Assembly: GCA_902517565.1 (NCBI GenBank)
Contig: CABYCU010000003.1
Location: forward strand, 53,518 to 117,517
Source of the DNA: an uncultured SAR86 cluster bacterium
Lineage (GTDB): Bacteria > Pseudomonadota > Gammaproteobacteria > Magnimaribacterales > Magnimaribacteraceae
Reading direction: 5' to 3'
DNA: 64,000 nucleotides
In this document: piece by piece, positions 14,953-23,769 of the stretch
Layout: each line of letters begins with the position of its first letter
Position numbering within the stretch: the first letter of the stretch is position 1
Program-made: the position numbers and the translations under genes
Notes under the pieces: generated by a model
Database searches by the model: none
The model's input: the letters and a program-made list of their open reading frames with translations, nothing else
Told to the model about the DNA's origin: nothing

Positions 14953-15741
14953 ATGTCCAATGATCCTCAAGACAGTCTAGATCTCTTTGATGATCACGAA
15001 GAGGTAGTTTCAGAGGACGGCAAGAAAGTTACCAGGAAAGGAATTTATTTACTTCCGAATCTCCTGACTACTGCCTCATTATTTTCTGGATTTTTCTCAA
15101 TAATTTCTGCAATAAATGGAAATTTCATTGCCTCAGGAATGGCACTTTTTGCAGCTCAAATGTTAGATGGTTTAGATGGAAGAGTGGCGAGACTCACAAA
15201 TTCTGAAAGCCTATTTGGAGCACAGTATGACAGTCTCTGTGACGTTATTTCATTTGGATTGGCGCCCGCTATAATAGTATTTCTTTGGGGGTTAGATTCA
15301 ATTGGCCAAACGGGTTGGGTTTTTTCATTTTTTTATGTTGCTGCAGCAGCTTTGAGGCTTGCAAGGTTTAATACTTATATTGGTTCCGAAGATACATATT
15401 TCAAAGGTCTTCCTAGTCCTGTCGCGAGCGCAATGGTTGTTTATTTTGTTTGGGCTATGAGCTCATTTGGCATTCAAGGAGAGGAGGTAGGAAGGCTTTT
15501 AGCAATTTTTACAGCCCTCTTAACAGGATTAGTTTCTTTATTGATGGTTGTAAATGTTCCTTACTATAGCTTTAAAGAAATTGAATTGAAGAAGAGAGTA
15601 CCTTTCTTTTCTATGCTTTTTGTAGTCTTCATCTTTGCCTTAATATCGATAGATCCTCCAATTGTATTGGCTAGTTGTGCTTTTGCATACATACTTTCCG
15701 GACCTCTACTATGGTCATGGAAAAGATTAAAAAGTAGTTAG
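14953..15741 (+). CDS. pssA: CDP-diacylglycerol--serine O-phosphatidyltransferase
   Basis: LPNLLT, DGLDGRVAR...GAQYDSLCDVISFG, RLARFN; ilvC-pssA synteny. Confidence 0.93.
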   Translation: MSNDPQDSLDLFDDHEEVVSEDGKKVTRKGIYLLPNLLTTASLFSGFFSIISAINGNFIASGMALFAAQMLDGLDGRVARLTNSESLFGAQYDSLCDVISFGLAPAIIVFLWGLDSIGQTGWVFSFFYVAAAALRLARFNTYIGSEDTYFKGLPSPVASAMVVYFVWAMSSFGIQGEEVGRLLAIFTALLTGLVSLLMVVNVPYYSFKEIELKKRVPFFSMLFVVFIFALISIDPPIVLASCAFAYILSGPLLWSWKRLKSS

Positions 15742-16811
15742 CTGGTTTTTCTCCAGTAACCTGTAAAACTCATCTGATCAACATTGAGGTCTAAGTTCTT
15801 TTTGAGAGTTTTTCTAATTGTGGAAATCTGTCTCGCTTCTCCTGCCCCAAATACATATAGCTTCTCTGAATTGACATCGAGCTGTTTAATTCTTTTAAGT
15901 AATTCAGTTCCTTCACCTGCTGGTTGATCATTTCTATAAATCCACTCTATACGATGTTCCGGATCACCATATTCAAATTTAGTTGTTTCATTTTGAGTTT
16001 CAAATAAACAAATAAAGTTTTCATCTTTATTTAAATTTTCAATTGCAGCTAAAGCAGCCGGTTGAGCAGTTTCATCTGCGATAAAGATGTAGTTATTTGT
16101 ATCTAAAGGTGGAGTAAACGTTGTCCTTGGCCCCCATATAGCGACTTCAGAATTTACTTTTGCCTCTTCAGCCCAGATTGCTAAGGGACCTGGATGATCA
16201 TGAAGAACAAACCATACGTCTATTTCATTTTCTCTGATTGATCTTATTGTGTAATAAGCCGCAGTGTAAGGATTCTCGTCTTTTGTATTGATTGCTCTGA
16301 AATCATTCATTGAAAATCCTTCAGGGTATTTATGTTCAATATCACTATTTACAATGAAATACATAAACGCATCATTTTTAAGGTTGGGTAAATTTTGTAG
16401 ACCACCTTTGAAAGTAATTTCTATAATATTGGATGATATCTCTCTTTTATTTTTTACTCTTGTTATGTAAGTATCTAGATTAAGAGTTTTTTCAATGAGT
16501 TTTTCAAGACGTGTCTTCGGATAATCTTCAGGAGCATCAGCTCTTGCTTTTGAGAGACATGAATAGAAGAAATTACTGACTTCAACTGAATCTTTCACCT
16601 TTTCTGGAAATTCTATTTGTTGAATCTTTTTTTCTTCATCCGTTTCAATAATCAAAGAAATTAATTCTGGCGAGATGTGTTTAATTTCAGTTTTTTTTGC
16701 TTTTACTTCTTTAAGATAATAGTGAGCAATAAGAAGGAGGGCGTCTTCGTTGACATCATTGTGTAAGTCAATCATTAATTGGATATTTTCTTGACTATTC
16801 TTATCGAACAT
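15738..16811 (-). CDS. Siderophore-interacting-protein (SIP) family FAD reductase with extra N-terminal DUF2470-like domain
   Basis: YYTIR, FVLH-GP-WA, WGPR, ADETA, GAGE, C-terminal GYWR; N-terminal ~110 aa resembles DUF2470. Confidence 0.8.
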   Translation of the reverse strand: MFDKNSQENIQLMIDLHNDVNEDALLLIAHYYLKEVKAKKTEIKHISPELISLIIETDEEKKIQQIEFPEKVKDSVEVSNFFYSCLSKARADAPEDYPKTRLEKLIEKTLNLDTYITRVKNKREISSNIIEITFKGGLQNLPNLKNDAFMYFIVNSDIEHKYPEGFSMNDFRAINTKDENPYTAAYYTIRSIRENEIDVWFVLHDHPGPLAIWAEEAKVNSEVAIWGPRTTFTPPLDTNNYIFIADETAQPAALAAIENLNKDENFICLFETQNETTKFEYGDPEHRIEWIYRNDQPAGEGTELLKRIKQLDVNSEKLYVFGAGEARQISTIRKTLKKNLDLNVDQMSFTGYWRKTS

Positions 16812-16814
16812 AAC

Positions 16815-17546
16815 TTATAGTTCGTAAGCTCTGTAGTCATTAGCTTGTTTAACAAGCATATCTTTATATTCCTTTGCATTACTGCAAATTTCTTCAAAAG
16901 AAATAAAATAAATTTCTTCATTAGATTTTATGTAATAACCATCTATCGATAGAGAAAGCATTTTAGCTTCATTATCTTTTATGGAATGTTGGGCATTTAG
17001 TGCTGAAGATATGTTGTGCGAGTGATCTTCATTCATATGTTCAATGATCGAAGACTCATTGCTACTCCATTTTGGTTTGTGTTGTTCCCATTTCTTTGCA
17101 TCAAGCCAGGCAATTTTACCAAACCCTCCTATCCACCTAACTTGATTGATATGTAGCCTGTAGAAATTGAAATCATGCATGGCAGCATATTTCTTACTTT
17201 CCGGTAAGAAATTTTCAAATCTGTTTTTCACGGTTTCTACTTCTTCATTAGGTAAAGCTTTTAAGTCTCCCAATAGTGTCATTCTGGAAGAATTTTGCTT
17301 ATCAAAATCGTCATCAATTTTGAATAAGGTTAAGCATGATTTAGAGTCTTCTTTTAAATTTATGGTGTGTTGCGCTATGTTACTTGCGTATATCAAAATA
17401 CTTCTGTCAACGTCTGTTACAAAGGTTACAAAACTCCCAAAAGGATAACCATCATTTCGGACTGATATGGTAGATAAGACTCCTTCACTAGCATTTCTAA
17501 GAAGGCTAATCGCATCTTTTTCGTATTCTTTTTGTTTTGTATTCAT
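16815..17546 (-). CDS. HugZ-family heme oxygenase-like protein (split barrel + DUF2470)
   Basis: GVLST, GYPFGS, IAQHTINL, HDFNFYRL, RWIGGFG, IIEHMNEDH. Confidence 0.85.
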   Translation of the reverse strand: MNTKQKEYEKDAISLLRNASEGVLSTISVRNDGYPFGSFVTFVTDVDRSILIYASNIAQHTINLKEDSKSCLTLFKIDDDFDKQNSSRMTLLGDLKALPNEEVETVKNRFENFLPESKKYAAMHDFNFYRLHINQVRWIGGFGKIAWLDAKKWEQHKPKWSSNESSIIEHMNEDHSHNISSALNAQHSIKDNEAKMLSLSIDGYYIKSNEEIYFISFEEICSNAKEYKDMLVKQANDYRAYEL

Positions 17547-17549
17547 AAC

Positions 17550-18323
17550 TCAGTAATAGTTAATTCTGAAAGGACTTTCTTCTATTTGCATATCTAAACC
17601 ATATACTTTGCTCAAAGTTTCCTCATTAAGGACCGTCCTAGGAGCTCCAATCTCCAGTAGTTTACCTTCATTGAATATTGCAATTTGATCAGAATACTTA
17701 GCGGCTAAGTTGAGATCATGGAGTATCAAAAGGATACCTATACCCTCATCTCTTTTATTTTGTATAAGTCTCATCATTTTTTGCTCATGAAGAATATCTA
17801 AATTTGCAGTAGGCTCATCTAGAAACATATATCTAGGATCATCCGATCCGGACGGTCTCCAAAGTTGGATAAGCGTTCTTGCAAAATGTACACGTCTTTT
17901 CTCTCCTCCAGATAAAGTATTAAAACTTTGTTCTAATAAATCCGCTACAGAACACTCAATAGATATTTTTTTAACGGCTTCTTCAAAATCTTTTGAATAA
18001 TCTGATATACCTCTGTCAATCCATCCCATTTCAATGATTTCTTTTACAGTAAAATCATAGGCTATTTCTTGAGATTGGGACATTACACTTCTCATGAAGG
18101 ATCTATCTTGAATAGAGATATTGCTTAGTGGAATGTCATCAAACTTGATTTCTCCATCTGATGCAGTTGAGTCGCCAGCTATAAGCTTTAAAAAAGAAGA
18201 TTTCCCAGCACCATTAGGCCCTAATATAGTGAGTATCTCTCCTTGGTTTATTTTTAGAGACACTTCGTCAACGATCCTTTTAGACTTTATTTCCCAAGTT
18301 AAATTAATTGTTTCAACGCTCAT
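17550..18323 (-). CDS. hmuV: Heme ABC transporter ATP-binding subunit
   Basis: GPNGAGKS, LSGGEKRRVHFARTLIQLW, LDEPT, ILHDLNLA. Confidence 0.88.
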   Translation of the reverse strand: MSVETINLTWEIKSKRIVDEVSLKINQGEILTILGPNGAGKSSFLKLIAGDSTASDGEIKFDDIPLSNISIQDRSFMRSVMSQSQEIAYDFTVKEIIEMGWIDRGISDYSKDFEEAVKKISIECSVADLLEQSFNTLSGGEKRRVHFARTLIQLWRPSGSDDPRYMFLDEPTANLDILHEQKMMRLIQNKRDEGIGILLILHDLNLAAKYSDQIAIFNEGKLLEIGAPRTVLNEETLSKVYGLDMQIEESPFRINYY

Positions 18324-19357
18324 GTCTTTCTTATTCTAAAAATTAACCACAAAAAGAAGGGAGCCCCTATAGCGCTCGTTATCAAACCAACTGGTAATTC
18401 AGCTGGTTGTATCAATGTTCTCGATAATAAGTCAGCTGTCATCATTAATGAGGCCCCTAGAAAAGCAGAACCAGGTAGTAAATAATTATGATTTACTCCT
18501 CCAATCAGTCTAACTAAATGAGGGACGACTAACCCTACAAATCCAATCATTCCTGATAAGGAAACACTTATACCAACTGTTATTGCCGAGGCAATAATAA
18601 CTTTAAATTTGAGTTTTCTTACATCTACACCTAAACGGTAAGCTTCCGGTTCTCCCAGCTGCAATAGATCTAATTTCCTTGCAGACGGTATCATCCAGAA
18701 CATAGTTAAAGAAATTATTATCAAAGCTGGAATTATCAACTGCCAGGAAGCCCCACCAAAACTCCCCATAGTCCAGAAAGTCAGTCCTCTTAATTCCGAG
18801 TCTGTGCTGATATAGGTGAGAATGCCGATTCCAACTGAAGCGAATGCATTTACTGCAATGCCAACTAAAAGCATATAGGTAATGCCCTGATAACCAAATC
18901 CTTGAGTAAAAAGGTATAAAAGGCTAATGACAAGTGAAGCACCAATAATTGCAGAAATTGGGAGTATTAATGTCCCAAATATAAAGTCGGGGAGGATACC
19001 GGAGCCAAGAACTATCACTATAGATGCGCCTAATGCTGCACCAGCCGAAACACCAATTAATCCGGGATCTGCCAAAGGATTTCTAAACAAACCTTGTAGA
19101 GAAGCACCCGAAAGCCCAAGACTTGCTCCAACAAAAGCTGCTAACAAAACCCTAGGAATTCTGATTTCCAAGAGAACAATATTATCTAATGAATTAGAGT
19201 CATTAAGTAACTCCTGAAGAGAAAAATTGAAACTACCTAAAGTAATTGACGTAACTAATATTAATAAAGTGGAAATTACAAAGAGTGCAAGAATTCCCGT
19301 TTGAAAAGAATTAATAAATTTCAAAGAATGAACTTTTTTGGAAAGTATTGATGACAT
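18320..19357 (-). CDS. hmuU: Heme ABC transporter permease (FecCD family)
   Basis: IRIPR, QGLFRNPLADPGLIGVSAGA, GFVGLVVPH, ELPVG. Confidence 0.88.
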   Translation of the reverse strand: MSSILSKKVHSLKFINSFQTGILALFVISTLLILVTSITLGSFNFSLQELLNDSNSLDNIVLLEIRIPRVLLAAFVGASLGLSGASLQGLFRNPLADPGLIGVSAGAALGASIVIVLGSGILPDFIFGTLILPISAIIGASLVISLLYLFTQGFGYQGITYMLLVGIAVNAFASVGIGILTYISTDSELRGLTFWTMGSFGGASWQLIIPALIIISLTMFWMIPSARKLDLLQLGEPEAYRLGVDVRKLKFKVIIASAITVGISVSLSGMIGFVGLVVPHLVRLIGGVNHNYLLPGSAFLGASLMMTADLLSRTLIQPAELPVGLITSAIGAPFFLWLIFRIRKT

Positions 19358-20208
19358 TATTTACTAAAAATTTTAGCAAACTTTATCGCCGTTGAAACTG
19401 TTCTTGTACCAAAACCCAACATGGCCATGCCATCTTCGTTCAAGATCTTTCCTTCGCGCGCAGCATTCGTAAACTTGAGTGAAGTAGTGCTTGCTAGACT
19501 TTCAATATCAGGAAAAGAATTCATGCCTCTGTTGGTAATAATTATATAGTCAGGATTATATGAAATAATTGATTCGCTGCTTATTGGCTTCCAACCTTCA
19601 AATTTATTTGCAGCATTACTTGCTCCAGTCATTTTGATGAAACCGTCCCCGGAAGTTCCATTTCCAGCAACTATAGGTGAAGTTCCTTGCATATTCAGAA
19701 TCAGCATCACTTTGATTCCTGATTCCTTATTTTCTTGCGCGAGTTCATTTAAGTAATTGATATCGTCTTTAATCAAATCAATTTTTGATAAGGTATCTTT
19801 TGATTTAGTATTGAGAACTTCTGATAGACATTCTATTTTTCGTAGAATACCTATAGACGTATGATCCTCTTCTAGAATACGTACATCCAAGCCCGTTAAT
19901 GATAGTTGCTCCACAACAAGAGGAGGCCCCATATCATCTTCCCCTAAAATTAGAGAGGGTTTTAGCGATAAAATACCCTCCGTGGATAATGCCCTGACGT
20001 AACCTATTGAGGGGAGTTCCGAAGTTGCGGGTGGAAAATTAGAAGTAATATCCACTCCGATAATTTTCTCTTCTTGCTCCAGAAAATACACTACTTCTGT
20101 TAGAGATCCTCCTGCTATAACAGTCTTCGATGAGTCTTTAGCCATGCTGCAATCTGACCAGCTTAAGTTCATGAATATGGAAATAATACTTATTAAAAAA
20201 AAGCGCAT
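19357..20208 (-). CDS. hmuT: Periplasmic heme-binding protein
   Basis: GGSLTEVVY, GVDITS, IGYVRALSTEGILSL containing the heme-ligand Tyr, LGFG. Confidence 0.88.
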   Translation of the reverse strand: MRFFLISIISIFMNLSWSDCSMAKDSSKTVIAGGSLTEVVYFLEQEEKIIGVDITSNFPPATSELPSIGYVRALSTEGILSLKPSLILGEDDMGPPLVVEQLSLTGLDVRILEEDHTSIGILRKIECLSEVLNTKSKDTLSKIDLIKDDINYLNELAQENKESGIKVMLILNMQGTSPIVAGNGTSGDGFIKMTGASNAANKFEGWKPISSESIISYNPDYIIITNRGMNSFPDIESLASTTSLKFTNAAREGKILNEDGMAMLGFGTRTVSTAIKFAKIFSK

Positions 20209-20238
20209 CTAAAGGATTGTATTGATTAAAAACTTAAA

Positions 20239-20263
20239 GTAAATGATAATCATTCCCATTCTC
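20239..20263. promoter_or_regulatory. Two overlapping Fur boxes in the divergent hmuT / receptor promoter
   Basis: GTAAATGATAATCATTCCC (15/19 to GATAATGATAATCATTATC) and GATAATCATTCCCATTCTC (14/19), offset by 6 bp. Confidence 0.85.
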
Positions 20264-20282
20264 ATCAAGAAAGAGGCAAAAA

Positions 20283-22463
20283 ATGAATAAAATCAAGTTT
20301 ATCAGAGTTTTAGTTTTAGGATTAGTGATATCTTTAAACCAGATATTAGCTGAAGATGACGTACAAGAAGTAGTTGTTATATCTTCGAAATATCCCGTTC
20401 CCTTGGAAGAAGTAGTTGGTAGTGTGGACTCTATATCACTCGAAGACCTAGAAACTAGAATGGTTAGTGATCTTGGAGATATGCTGGATAAAACTATAGG
20501 CGTATCTGTTTCAAAGAGAAATGTTTCTGGAAGGGCATACAACGATGGTATCTCTATCCGTGGCTTAGGCGGTAAAAGGGTTAACATTTTAATTGATGGC
20601 ATCAGAGTAGCAGAAGCTTATACCGGATACGGAAGAGATGTTGTTGATGTAGATCTCTTAAAACGAGTCGAAATTCTAAAAGGTCCTAGTTCAGCTTTAT
20701 ACGGTTCAGATGGACTTGCTGGAGCCGTTTCTTATATTACAAAAGATCCAAGTGATTTAGCCGAATTTGGGCAGAATTATTTTTCAGTAAATACTTCTTA
20801 TGACGAAGATAATGAACAAACCAAAGTAGGCCTTCTAGCAGCTAGAGTAGGGGAAAGCGTGGAGAGCTTAATCCAGATAACTACAAGAGAACTTAGCCAA
20901 GTTGAATTGCATGATGACGCCACTCAAGAACTTGACCCTTTTGATGGAGAGCAATTGAGTGTATTGGCTAAATTTAAATTAAGTCTGTCTGATTCGGTAG
21001 GACTGACTTTAACTTTAGATTCTCAAGAATTTGAGGGTGATTATATTTTTAAGTCTCAAGCAGGTATGAGTTATTTTCCAGATGTTGTTAGTGCATCGAA
21101 CGTCTTAGGTGTTGATGATGGCAATAGAGATAGAGGAACATTATCTCTTGATTTCAGTAATGAAACTTCTATGTTTGATAATGGTTCAATAAGATTTTAT
21201 GTTCAGGAAACTGATCAAAAGCAAATTACAACAAGATCTAAAACTTACTTTGCTGCAGGACCTCCAACGATGGTTAATGCTTATAGAGATTATCAATTTA
21301 ATCAGGATATAGACGGGTTTTCCGCCGATTTCTTTAAGTCAATCAATAATAATGGAAGACTACATAATATTGTTTATGGATTTGAAATAGAAAATATTGA
21401 AATTCAACGTCCAAGGATAAGATACGAAACCAACCTTATGACTGGAGCCGTAAATACCTTTCTTGGTGGAGAGTACTATCCAAATAAAACTATTCCTGAT
21501 ACTGAGATAGAGAGACAGAGCTTCTTTTTCAATGACAGGCTTGAACTTAATGAGAAAACAACCATTGTTTTCGGAGCTCGATATGATGGTTACGAACTTA
21601 CTCCTACACCTGACGATTTATTCTATGCAAATGCCCAATCTACGAACGAACTTTATTTTATAGATGATAGTGAGGTTTCTATGAAGTTAGGTTTCTTGAG
21701 AAATCTATCTGAAGAAGTTTCGTTTTATGCGCAGTATGCTGAAGGTTTCAGAGCACCAGATTTTCAAAGCGCTAACCTTAGTTTCACTAATTTAGCTTTC
21801 CGTTATGCTGTTGGTACTAGCACTGGTTTGCAGCCTGAAGAAAGTGAAGGTTACGAATTTGGCTTCAAAGGAGCAACTGATAACATGTCTTGGACTTTGT
21901 CATTTTATGATAATGATTATGAAAACTTCATAGATACTTATATCACAGGGAGAAGTCCACAAGGCATCACCCTATATGAATATGGAAATCTTGATGAGGT
22001 TGAGATTAAGGGTGTTGAATTTGAAATGAATGCTGACCTTTCAGATAACTTACAGGCATCTTTAGGCTTTAGCGTCCCAGATGGCAATAAAAATGGTGAG
22101 CAGCTCGTATCTATAGATTCGGAAGAAGCGATATTAGGTTTAGTATGGAACTCCAATAGCGGTAAATTGAAACTCAGTGGTTACGCTAACATTACTGCTG
22201 GAAGTCATGATAATTTACCTCCATCTTGTGGAAGGAGTGGTTGTAACCCTCTACTGGCCTTACCTGGAACAACGACAATAGATGTTTATGGAAGTTATGA
22301 ATTAACTTCAAATCTCAAACTTAGGTTTGCAATAAGGAATCTAACTGACGAAAGTTACTGGAACTGGGCATCCGTCCAAGGAAAGAGTTCTACTGACACT
22401 AATTTAGATATCTTTATGGAACCTGGAAGAAACATGAGTATGGGACTGAAATACGATTTCTAG
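20283..22463 (+). CDS. TonB-dependent receptor, probably heme/hemoprotein
   Basis: Signal peptide, EVVVI TonB box, RVEILKGPSSALYGSDGLAG plug, FRAP motif, C-terminal KYDF; heme-locus context. Confidence 0.88.
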   Translation: MNKIKFIRVLVLGLVISLNQILAEDDVQEVVVISSKYPVPLEEVVGSVDSISLEDLETRMVSDLGDMLDKTIGVSVSKRNVSGRAYNDGISIRGLGGKRVNILIDGIRVAEAYTGYGRDVVDVDLLKRVEILKGPSSALYGSDGLAGAVSYITKDPSDLAEFGQNYFSVNTSYDEDNEQTKVGLLAARVGESVESLIQITTRELSQVELHDDATQELDPFDGEQLSVLAKFKLSLSDSVGLTLTLDSQEFEGDYIFKSQAGMSYFPDVVSASNVLGVDDGNRDRGTLSLDFSNETSMFDNGSIRFYVQETDQKQITTRSKTYFAAGPPTMVNAYRDYQFNQDIDGFSADFFKSINNNGRLHNIVYGFEIENIEIQRPRIRYETNLMTGAVNTFLGGEYYPNKTIPDTEIERQSFFFNDRLELNEKTTIVFGARYDGYELTPTPDDLFYANAQSTNELYFIDDSEVSMKLGFLRNLSEEVSFYAQYAEGFRAPDFQSANLSFTNLAFRYAVGTSTGLQPEESEGYEFGFKGATDNMSWTLSFYDNDYENFIDTYITGRSPQGITLYEYGNLDEVEIKGVEFEMNADLSDNLQASLGFSVPDGNKNGEQLVSIDSEEAILGLVWNSNSGKLKLSGYANITAGSHDNLPPSCGRSGCNPLLALPGTTTIDVYGSYELTSNLKLRFAIRNLTDESYWNWASVQGKSSTDTNLDIFMEPGRNMSMGLKYDF

Positions 22464-22471
22464 ATACTTAT

Positions 22472-22502
22472 AAAAAAAAAGGGCCAACAGGCCCTTTTTT
22501 TT
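22472..22502. terminator. Bidirectional intrinsic terminator
   Basis: A9-GGGCC-AACA-GGCCC-T8 just after the receptor stop. Confidence 0.9.
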
Positions 22503-22561
22503 GTTCTAGTTTTGTTAACTAGATTAGAGTTTTTGTTGTAATATGCTCGCTCCACGCAAGT

Positions 22562-22639
<78 letters not shown>

Positions 22640-22830: not shown

Positions 22831-23769
22831 ATGAAAGCAGTAGGATTGATGACACATGGCGGACCTGAGGTACTAGAAGTTCTTGAAGTACCTGAGGTGC
22901 AGGCAGGCCCCGGGCAAATTAGGATTCGTAATCATGCCTCCGCAGTTAATCCAACAGATGTTGCTGCAAGAAGTGGTTTGATGGCGCAGTTACAGAAAAA
23001 AAATCCTCCGCCATATGTTCCGGGTATGGATGCAGCAGGAGTAGTCGATCAAATAGGGGAAGGAGTCAATACAGATATCCAACTAGGAGATAATGTTATG
23101 GCCATGGTGGTGCCTAACGGAAATTACGGAGCTTATAGAGAACAGATAGTGTTAGACCAGAATGCAGTAGTTAAAGCTCCAAAAGATACATCTCATGTCG
23201 AGGCTTGCACTCTTCCAATGAATTCACTAACTGCAAGACTATCCTTGGATTTATTAAATCTAAAGGAAGGACAAGTTTTGGCTGTCACAGGTAGTCCAGG
23301 AGCTTATGGTGGTTATGTTGTTCAACTCGCCAAGGCAGGTGGTCTTACAGTTATTGCTGATTCTAATGAGTCAGATGAAAAACTACTGAAATCCTTAGGT
23401 GTCGATATTATTATTCCAAGAGGCGAGGGGTATGCCGAAAGAATAAGAGAAGAATTTCCCGAAGGTGTTGATGGAATGGCTGATGGAGCTCTGCTAAATG
23501 AACTAGCTATAGATGCGGTGAGAGATGGCGGCTCTTTTACATCTATTAGAGGATTTAAAGGGGATCCTCAGAGAGATATAGAATTCTCAACTACTTGGGT
23601 TACCGCTTATGATTGTAAGAAAGACATATTAGAAACTCTCAAAGGGCAAGCAGAAGAGGGTATTCTGACACTTAGAGTTGCGGACTCAGTGTCTATTGAA
23701 AATGCCGCCGAAGCTCATGAGAGGTTAGAAGCAGGTGGCACTAGAGGTAGGATGGTCATAGAATTCTGA
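22831..23769 (+). CDS. Zinc-independent MDR-family NADP oxidoreductase (quinone oxidoreductase-like)
   Basis: GGPEVL, AVNPTD, PGMDAAG, AHERLEAGGTRGR. Confidence 0.85.
   Translation: MKAVGLMTHGGPEVLEVLEVPEVQAGPGQIRIRNHASAVNPTDVAARSGLMAQLQKKNPPPYVPGMDAAGVVDQIGEGVNTDIQLGDNVMAMVVPNGNYGAYREQIVLDQNAVVKAPKDTSHVEACTLPMNSLTARLSLDLLNLKEGQVLAVTGSPGAYGGYVVQLAKAGGLTVIADSNESDEKLLKSLGVDIIIPRGEGYAERIREEFPEGVDGMADGALLNELAIDAVRDGGSFTSIRGFKGDPQRDIEFSTTWVTAYDCKKDILETLKGQAEEGILTLRVADSVSIENAAEAHERLEAGGTRGRMVIEF

Follow-up and report, generated by a model that had tools for sequence, protein, structure and literature searches.

Heme-degrading enzymes of the HugZ, HutZ, and HOZ types need an external reductant in vitro; to our knowledge, the reductant that serves them in vivo, like that of many IsdG-type heme-degrading enzymes, is mostly unknown. 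Which protein might fill this role is a question raised by a 64,000-nucleotide stretch of DNA from an uncultured SAR86 cluster bacterium (contig CABYCU010000003.1; the whole stretch is hereafter called the window), where an hmuTUV operon ends in genes for a HOZ-like, putatively heme-degrading protein (P0002) and for a reductase (P0001) that fuses an N-terminal DUF2470/DRI domain to a SIP-type flavin reductase core. A reductase encoded in the same operon is a directly testable candidate for the reductant of such enzymes. The original prediction, drawn from the sequence, had cast the SIP protein as the dedicated electron donor to a HugZ-type partner, or as a reductant of the released iron, with shared DUF2470 modules mediating docking or heme hand-over. 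The reading favored here, to which we give about an even chance, is that P0001 would be an auxiliary reductase that passes electrons from NAD(P)H through its flavin to support the release of iron from heme, and the locus an iron-regulated island for the use of external heme.

Six genes occupy window positions 15738-22463, five on the minus strand and one, encoding a TonB-dependent receptor, divergent from them on the plus strand (Table 1). The list of open reading frames (ORFs) agrees with the original prediction in the ORFs and coordinates given, in both sequence motifs quoted, and in placing P0002 and P0001 last in the hmuTUV operon. Genes hmuT, hmuU, and hmuV overlap, and the ORF coordinates leave 3 bp each between hmuV and P0002 and between P0002 and P0001; because all five genes overlap or lie 3 bp apart, hmuT-hmuU-hmuV-P0002-P0001 form one operon. 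A heme-type TonB receptor together with HmuTUV identifies a Hmu-type uptake locus, the NF010068 cut-off for the ATPase being barely exceeded (261.5 vs. 261 bits). The 74-bp region between the divergent genes holds ATGATAATCATT, in which overlapping sites match the Fur consensus twice at 15/19; the 64-kb window has just two further sites of this quality, and promoter-like hexamers on both strands overlap the Fur-box-like site. The 3′ end of the reductase gene converges on a CDP-alcohol phosphatidyltransferase gene and ilvBHC genes. The host genome comprises 1.21 Mb in 37 contigs (35% GC). HemS/HmuS-type proteins (PF05171), ChuX/HutX, and canonical heme oxygenase were not found in this 75%-complete assembly, and HutW was not searched for; the earlier statement that HemS/HmuS and HutX are absent holds for the portion assembled.

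The reductase core of P0001 is that of a standard SIP. Residues 118-355 of P0001 match SIP (PF04954; E 5.9e-24) and FAD_binding_9 (PF08021; E 4.1e-14), at 85.3 and 53.3 bits against gathering scores of 26.3 and 23, respectively, leaving an extra N-terminal region of ~112 aa. An AlphaFold2 (AF2) model of the full protein, built with 29 homologues, reached a predicted local distance difference test score (pLDDT) of 90 and a predicted template-modeling score (pTM) of 0.83. Its top 13 Foldseek matches were all SIP structures (target-normalized template-modeling scores 0.77-0.83), the best being FscN (4yhb), SIPs of Shewanella, Acinetobacter, Aeromonas, and Vibrio, and the SIP domain of IrtA; a profile search of the PDB also recovered 4yhb, at E 2e-38. 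Judged by the model, the SIP fold of P0001 is intact. The protein shares the two-domain FAD/NAD(P)H fold of ViuB, YqjH, FscN, SfSIP, and the SIP domain of IrtA, with FscN matched in Foldseek at E 1e-19; it differs from these in its extra DRI head, in its heme-operon rather than siderophore-operon setting, and in reading AYYT where the SIP flavin motif has RxYS/T, so that the motif Arg is absent (about aa 183-186, window 16254-16265). The AYYT variant, found in 75 of 80 fusions, was considered as a marker of the fusion family and rejected, since 25 of the 39 nearest plain SIPs carry it as well. Some plain SIPs have an Arg 3-4 residues upstream (RPxxAYYT), which may compensate for the absent motif Arg.

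The N-terminal domain, which the original prediction had described as resembling a degenerate DUF2470, remained sub-threshold in a hidden Markov model scan of aa 1-125 (PF10615; 18.3 bits vs. 22, E 0.0035). However, 15 of 29 P0001 homologues match DUF2470 (E<0.01; best E 6.9e-9), and a profile of the domain matches the Dri1/Ssr1698 crystal structures at E 1e-12 and, weakly, the DRI domains of MSMEG_6519 and PtHOZ1. The AF2 model of aa 1-112 (pLDDT 94) has a helix-helix-three strands-helix arrangement (the alpha-alpha-beta3-alpha fold) and superposes on Dri1 in Foldseek with a root-mean-square deviation of 1.3-1.6 Å over 81 residues (1.3 Å for 8zxq); the next structural matches are the DRI domains of MSMEG_6519, GBP, AtHOZ1, HugZ, and ChuZ. 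Because the Pfam matches of relatives, the Dri1 profile match, and the AF2 superposition agree, homology to DUF2470/DRI is secure, and the earlier identification of the domain was correct. Synechocystis Dri1/Ssr1698 (8GDW, 8ZXQ) is its best match in both sequence and structure.

The description of this domain as degenerate also proved apt. The alignment of the P0001 profile to Dri1 is gapless, residue numbers being the same in both, and the Dri1 residues His16 and His21 (Zn/heme ligands) and His79 (axial heme ligand) correspond to L16, N21, and S79 in the window protein; Arg90, which binds a heme propionate in Dri1, is kept (Grosjean et al., 2024, Nat Commun, PMC11014987). These three histidines, all of which are missing in P0001, are employed by Dri1 as a stand-alone, zinc-mirror heme-bridged dimer. 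A Dri1 His16Ala-His21Ala change abolishes heme binding, as do ChuZ His9/His14 mutations (PMC11014987). The window DRI domain retains N18, D23, A89, and R90, of which N18, A89, and R90 are common to it and Dri1. Across 80 full-length family representatives, His occurs at position 16 in 53 and at position 21 in 62, the counts for N18, D23, A89, and R90 are 71, 79, 74, and 77, respectively, and Asn at position 21 is seen in the window protein alone. From these alignments, the DRI-SIP family overall looks capable of binding heme, with the ligand histidines lost in the window's clade.

Since both heme-ligand histidines are lost, heme hand-over through the P0001 DRI domain becomes unlikely, and the proposal that shared DUF2470 modules pass heme between the two proteins is weakened. 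The DRI domains of P0001 and P0002 align in register in hhalign, with only ~12% identity (E 0.005); that the former is a recent duplicate of the latter was rejected on account of this low identity and of its far closer relation to stand-alone Dri1. The residue losses suggest that the P0001 DRI head is most likely a docking or regulatory module rather than a heme carrier. GBP, another exception without the His pair, is reported to act by protein binding.

P0002 had been called a HugZ-type protein with a C-terminal DUF2470 domain. The domain is present (aa 165-232; E 1.2e-8), following a CREG/PNPOx split barrel at aa 7-154, while the HugZ label is imprecise: the protein reaches 54.6 bits where the HugZ equivalog TIGR04109 requires 240, and it matches HugZ itself (3gas) at E 0.0019, whereas its closest solved relatives are PA4388 (2arz; E 2.6e-34), AtHOZ1 (1.6e-15), and MSMEG_6519 (2.8e-13). 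Because of its barrel-then-DRI order, the failed HugZ model, and PA4388 as nearest relative, P0002 is placed in the prokaryotic HOZ-like group (JBC 2024, PMC11602992). It shares with HugZ and ChuZ (H. pylori 3GAS, C. jejuni 3SWJ) and HutZ a split-barrel heme-degrading superfamily, an association with heme-uptake loci, and presumably their need for external reductant; HugZ has the reverse order, DRI then barrel. HOZ-like genes are reported to adjoin SIP, FecCD, and TonB-receptor genes (PMC11602992), and the window matches the HOZ-like PA4388 (2ARZ) and MSMEG_6519 (5BNC) both in this neighborhood and in the split barrel followed by DRI; it differs in that the SIP neighbor has its own DRI domain. 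The DRI domain of P0002 keeps the His pair (H170-M-N-E-D-H175), with H170 and H175 invariant in 24 homologues; heme binding and degradation are putative functions of P0002. Complex prediction for P0002 with P0001 gave a score of 0.00 against a mark of 0.32, which weighs neither for nor against binding.

Among 201 genomes of the host's order, the core locus of TonB-dependent receptor, hmuTUV, and HOZ-like gene was found in 17, representing all four families of the order. In the window's family, all eight core loci end in a DRI-SIP gene and keep the order receptor-hmuTUV-HOZ-like-DRI-SIP, with the reductase 48-95% and HmuU 82-99% identical across loci. In G406, a closed genome from the window's genus, the syntenic site retains of the receptor gene only the last ~14 codons, which abut reductase codons 209-357, between the same tRNA and phosphatidyltransferase genes (L052, G406:C1, 9460-10161, vs. 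window 15738-22639); this is a clean internal deletion of ~5.9 kb, which shows that the six genes are gained and lost together. Several congeners carry a plain SIP elsewhere, which in one case adjoins a PF00756 esterase and a TonB-C protein, a siderophore-like setting. In the sister genus g332, the fusion lies directly downstream of a heme-type receptor in one genome (G571) and on a different contig from the HOZ-like heme locus in another (G547); in a metagenome relative with the same neighbor layout, DoxX and a DtxR-type repressor lie next to it. Sampling 400 genomes across the class yielded no full-length fusion beyond the window's own genome.

The fusion has been described as a small Pseudomonadota subfamily with iron-related neighborhoods (PMC11014987). 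The family found here has the same architecture, with DRI at the N terminus and a PF04954 SIP domain after it, and is wider: an exhaustive profile search returned 4586 SIP-like matches, and of the 150 best clusters, formed at 50% identity, ~85-90 are full-length fusions, which include Ilumatobacter fluminis, other Actinomycetota, and Pseudomonadota metagenome-assembled genomes (MAGs). It further differs from the described subfamily in the window's clade without His16 and His21. Gene contexts were surveyed in ~15 hand-picked lineages, which do not amount to a census. In a Pseudomonadales MAG, the fusion accompanies hmuTUV-like genes, HmuQ (150 bits vs. 130), a PPOX gene (TIGR04025), two exporter-type ABC genes, and DUF4920. 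In Acidimicrobiia G711, genes for a binding protein, a HOZ-like protein (DUF2470 E 4.7e-16), FecCD, an ATPase, the DRI-SIP, and an IsdG/HmuQ-like ABM protein share one strand. Together with the window's family, these make three lineages in which the fusion is clustered with a gene of heme-degrading type, spanning two enzyme folds; other heme-related contexts include a heme-type receptor, heme biosynthesis genes, and PPOX split barrels, and on one Tara contig a binding protein lies directly upstream of the fusion. Siderophore-like contexts of the fusion are a clear minority, such that the neighborhood survey came out as the original prediction had anticipated: fusions are not mostly in siderophore loci, and a heme locus hosts them in all eight window-family genomes.

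Two Pseudomonadota MAGs also have a TIGR04025 PPOX split-barrel gene by the fusion, one of them with Fur, an MFS gene, and IrtAB-like ABC genes in addition. These split-barrel flavoproteins of the MSMEG_1061/DR2398 family lie at L053 2490-3104, L074 14367-14987, and L076 6259-6810. Seen in three separate Pseudomonadota lineages, the TIGR04025 protein may be a second recurrent partner of the fusion.

Under the favored reading, the locus would be a Fur-type iron-regulated accessory island with external heme as the iron source. The TonB receptor and HmuTUV would import heme; the HOZ-like split-barrel protein would bind it and open it oxidatively; and the SIP protein would hand single electrons from NAD(P)H via FAD to enzyme-bound ferric heme or verdoheme, to the departing iron, or to both. 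The reductase would be an optional enhancer on a five-gene core, not an obligate subunit, and would help where other reductants are scarce, as would fit a 1.2-Mb genome. This reading is supported by the tight coupling of five genes, the divergent heme-type receptor, and the Fur-like site between them; by a gene order kept in eight of eight window-family genomes while the reductase diverged to 48% identity; by independent recurrence with heme-degrading genes in the Pseudomonadales MAG and G711 and the receptor-fusion adjacency in G571; and by the esterase/TonB setting of a congener's plain SIP, the intact SIP fold, and the failure to find HemS, ChuX, or a canonical heme oxygenase. A comparable arrangement is that of Staphylococcus aureus, where IruO, a dedicated flavin reductase, feeds electrons to the non-canonical heme-degrading enzymes IsdG and IsdI; IruO belongs to a different flavoprotein family and has no DRI fusion.

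Several observations weigh against this assignment. In the other three families of the order, 9 of the 17 heme loci stop at the HOZ-like gene with no reductase nearby, and in genus g329, which belongs to a sister family, the fusion (~35% identity) occurs in 5 of 17 genomes and a HOZ-like gene in none. Among the surveyed lineages, one MAG has the fusion directly after two IrtAB-like ABC genes; Ilumatobacter and G787 have siderophore-like surroundings (two FecCD permeases, several binding proteins, and, in Ilumatobacter, a plain SIP); three contigs show no iron genes near the fusion; and G598, G599, and G600 gave no good HOZ-like match, with only a weak split-barrel match in G600 (E 1.2e-7). The host genome is 75% complete, and no activity measurements for DRI-SIP or bacterial PA4388-type proteins were found in the literature. 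Because of the reductase-less loci and the g329 fusions without a HOZ-like gene, the P0002/P0001 pair is not obligate, though conserved in one family, and the term "dedicated" in the original prediction is not supported. The genes that follow the HOZ-like gene in reductase-less loci are unrelated, encoding a P19-type Fe2+ transport protein (in two loci), an alternative oxidase, and others; the former are P19/FetP-type periplasmic proteins (PF10634; L062 8766-9308, L065 8748-9278).

These same data can be read as describing a general cytosolic ferric-chelate or ferric-siderophore reductase of the ViuB/YqjH kind, merely co-regulated with iron-uptake genes. Such an enzyme would reduce Fe(III) whatever its source and leave the heme enzyme alone, and its DRI domain would be a regulatory head that senses heme or iron. 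A canonical SIP core is what such a reductase would have, and the fusion does occur in siderophore-like or IrtAB-like loci (Ilumatobacter, G787, P0044, P0178), by Fur or DtxR-type regulators, and without HOZ-like genes, while the heme loci of nine genomes have no reductase. Yet in the window's family the fusion is never outside the heme operon, congeners have a separate plain SIP in a siderophore-like setting, and in distant phyla the fusion is again found with heme-degrading proteins, of two different folds; we regard a general reductase as rather unlikely. The explanation that the two genes are neighbors only through the history of a mobile island, and are not functionally coupled, would account for a patchy distribution (about 7 of 24 genomes of the genus), a location beside a tRNA gene, and the deletion in one congener. 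It sits poorly, however, with a 3-bp spacing kept across two genera despite 48-95% reductase identity and with a pairing that arose independently in distant phyla, and is the least probable of the explanations considered.

A further explanation makes the fusion a heme-handling flavoprotein, in which the DRI domain binds heme and the SIP core reduces it, as a heme reductase, chaperone, or heme-gated enzyme of flavohemoprotein-like character that perhaps serves both breakdown and synthesis. The retention of His16, His21, and Arg90 in 53, 62, and 77 of the 80 representatives fits this idea, as does the g329 gene, which is divergent from a secreted Trp-rich DUF6607 gene and beside hemB-hemE-hemH-hemF-hemG (L047 9441-16023; L059, L060). 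However, with L16 and N21 the window protein could not act this way unless other ligands (H17?) substitute, and the hem cluster is set off by the opposite-strand DUF6607 gene in an arrangement conserved in one lineage only, for which reasons the adjacency was also set aside as a sign of a reductase feeding ferrochelatase. As a general account this appears improbable; a role as heme-binding reductase or chaperone is plausible for histidine-retaining relatives, but not for P0001. Literature searches on DUF6607, and on SIP proteins with heme degradation, found no experimental work.

Returning to electron donation, a broader and more tentative proposal is that DRI-SIPs are the missing physiological electron donors for HOZ-like and IsdG/HmuQ-type heme degradation in marine and soil bacteria, with the DRI head as a heme-dependent docking or gating switch that was reduced to heme-independent docking in the SAR86-like clade; we consider this possible, if doubtful. 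Bioinformatic notes on both the fusion (PMC11014987) and the HOZ-SIP adjacency (PMC11602992) have been published before. The present analysis adds the loss of His16 and His21 in the window's clade, a reductase that is optional within one order, the G406 deletion scar, recurrence with IsdG/HmuQ-type as well as HOZ-like genes, and a larger family of wider phyletic spread. These provide a natural experiment, with sister lineages that have or lack the reductase on the same heme core and family members with or without heme-ligand histidines. Judging by the 1.2-Mb genome, the 35% GC, and Tara/ENA marine sources, the host is probably one of the abundant marine gammaproteobacteria with streamlined genomes; in that case, the island would help to determine which cells can recycle heme iron in the iron-poor surface ocean.

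Table 1. Features of the candidate heme-use island and its flank, in window coordinates
Feature	Position	Strand	Evidence
P0001, DRI-SIP reductase, 357 aa	15738-16811	-	ORF and Pfam
SIP reductase core (FAD-binding and NAD(P)H-binding domains), aa 113-357 plus stop codon	15738..16475	-	PF08021, PF04954, AF2, 4yhb
N-terminal DRI (DUF2470) domain and linker helix of reductase, aa 1-112	16476..16811	-	Profile, Pfam, AF2, Foldseek
P0002, HOZ-like (PA4388-type), putative heme-degrading enzyme, 243 aa	16815..17546	-	Split barrel and DRI with H170-x-N172-x-x-H175
HmuV, heme ABC transporter ATPase	17550..18323	-	NF010068, 261.5 bits vs. cut-off 261
HmuU, FecCD-family permease	18320..19357	-	PF01032, E 2.7e-89
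HmuT, periplasmic binding protein (Peripla_BP_2)	19357..20208	-	PF01497, E 1.2e-21
Fur-box-like palindrome, divergent promoter region	20239..20263	.	Two overlapping 15/19 matches
TonB-dependent receptor, heme/hemoglobin/transferrin subfamily, FRAP motif	20283..22463	+	TIGR01786, 332.6 bits vs. cut-off 323.75
Terminator-like hairpin 3′ of receptor gene	22473..22502	+	Sequence
tRNA-Ile(GAT), flanking the island	22562..22639	+	Sequence

Beyond the tRNA-Ile gene, and before the next conserved gene, lies an ORF resembling zinc-type alcohol dehydrogenases/quinone oxidoreductases (window 22831-23769). The syntenic 20 kb of a congener gave no match to it and has a different sequence in that gap; the variable region therefore reaches past the heme genes.

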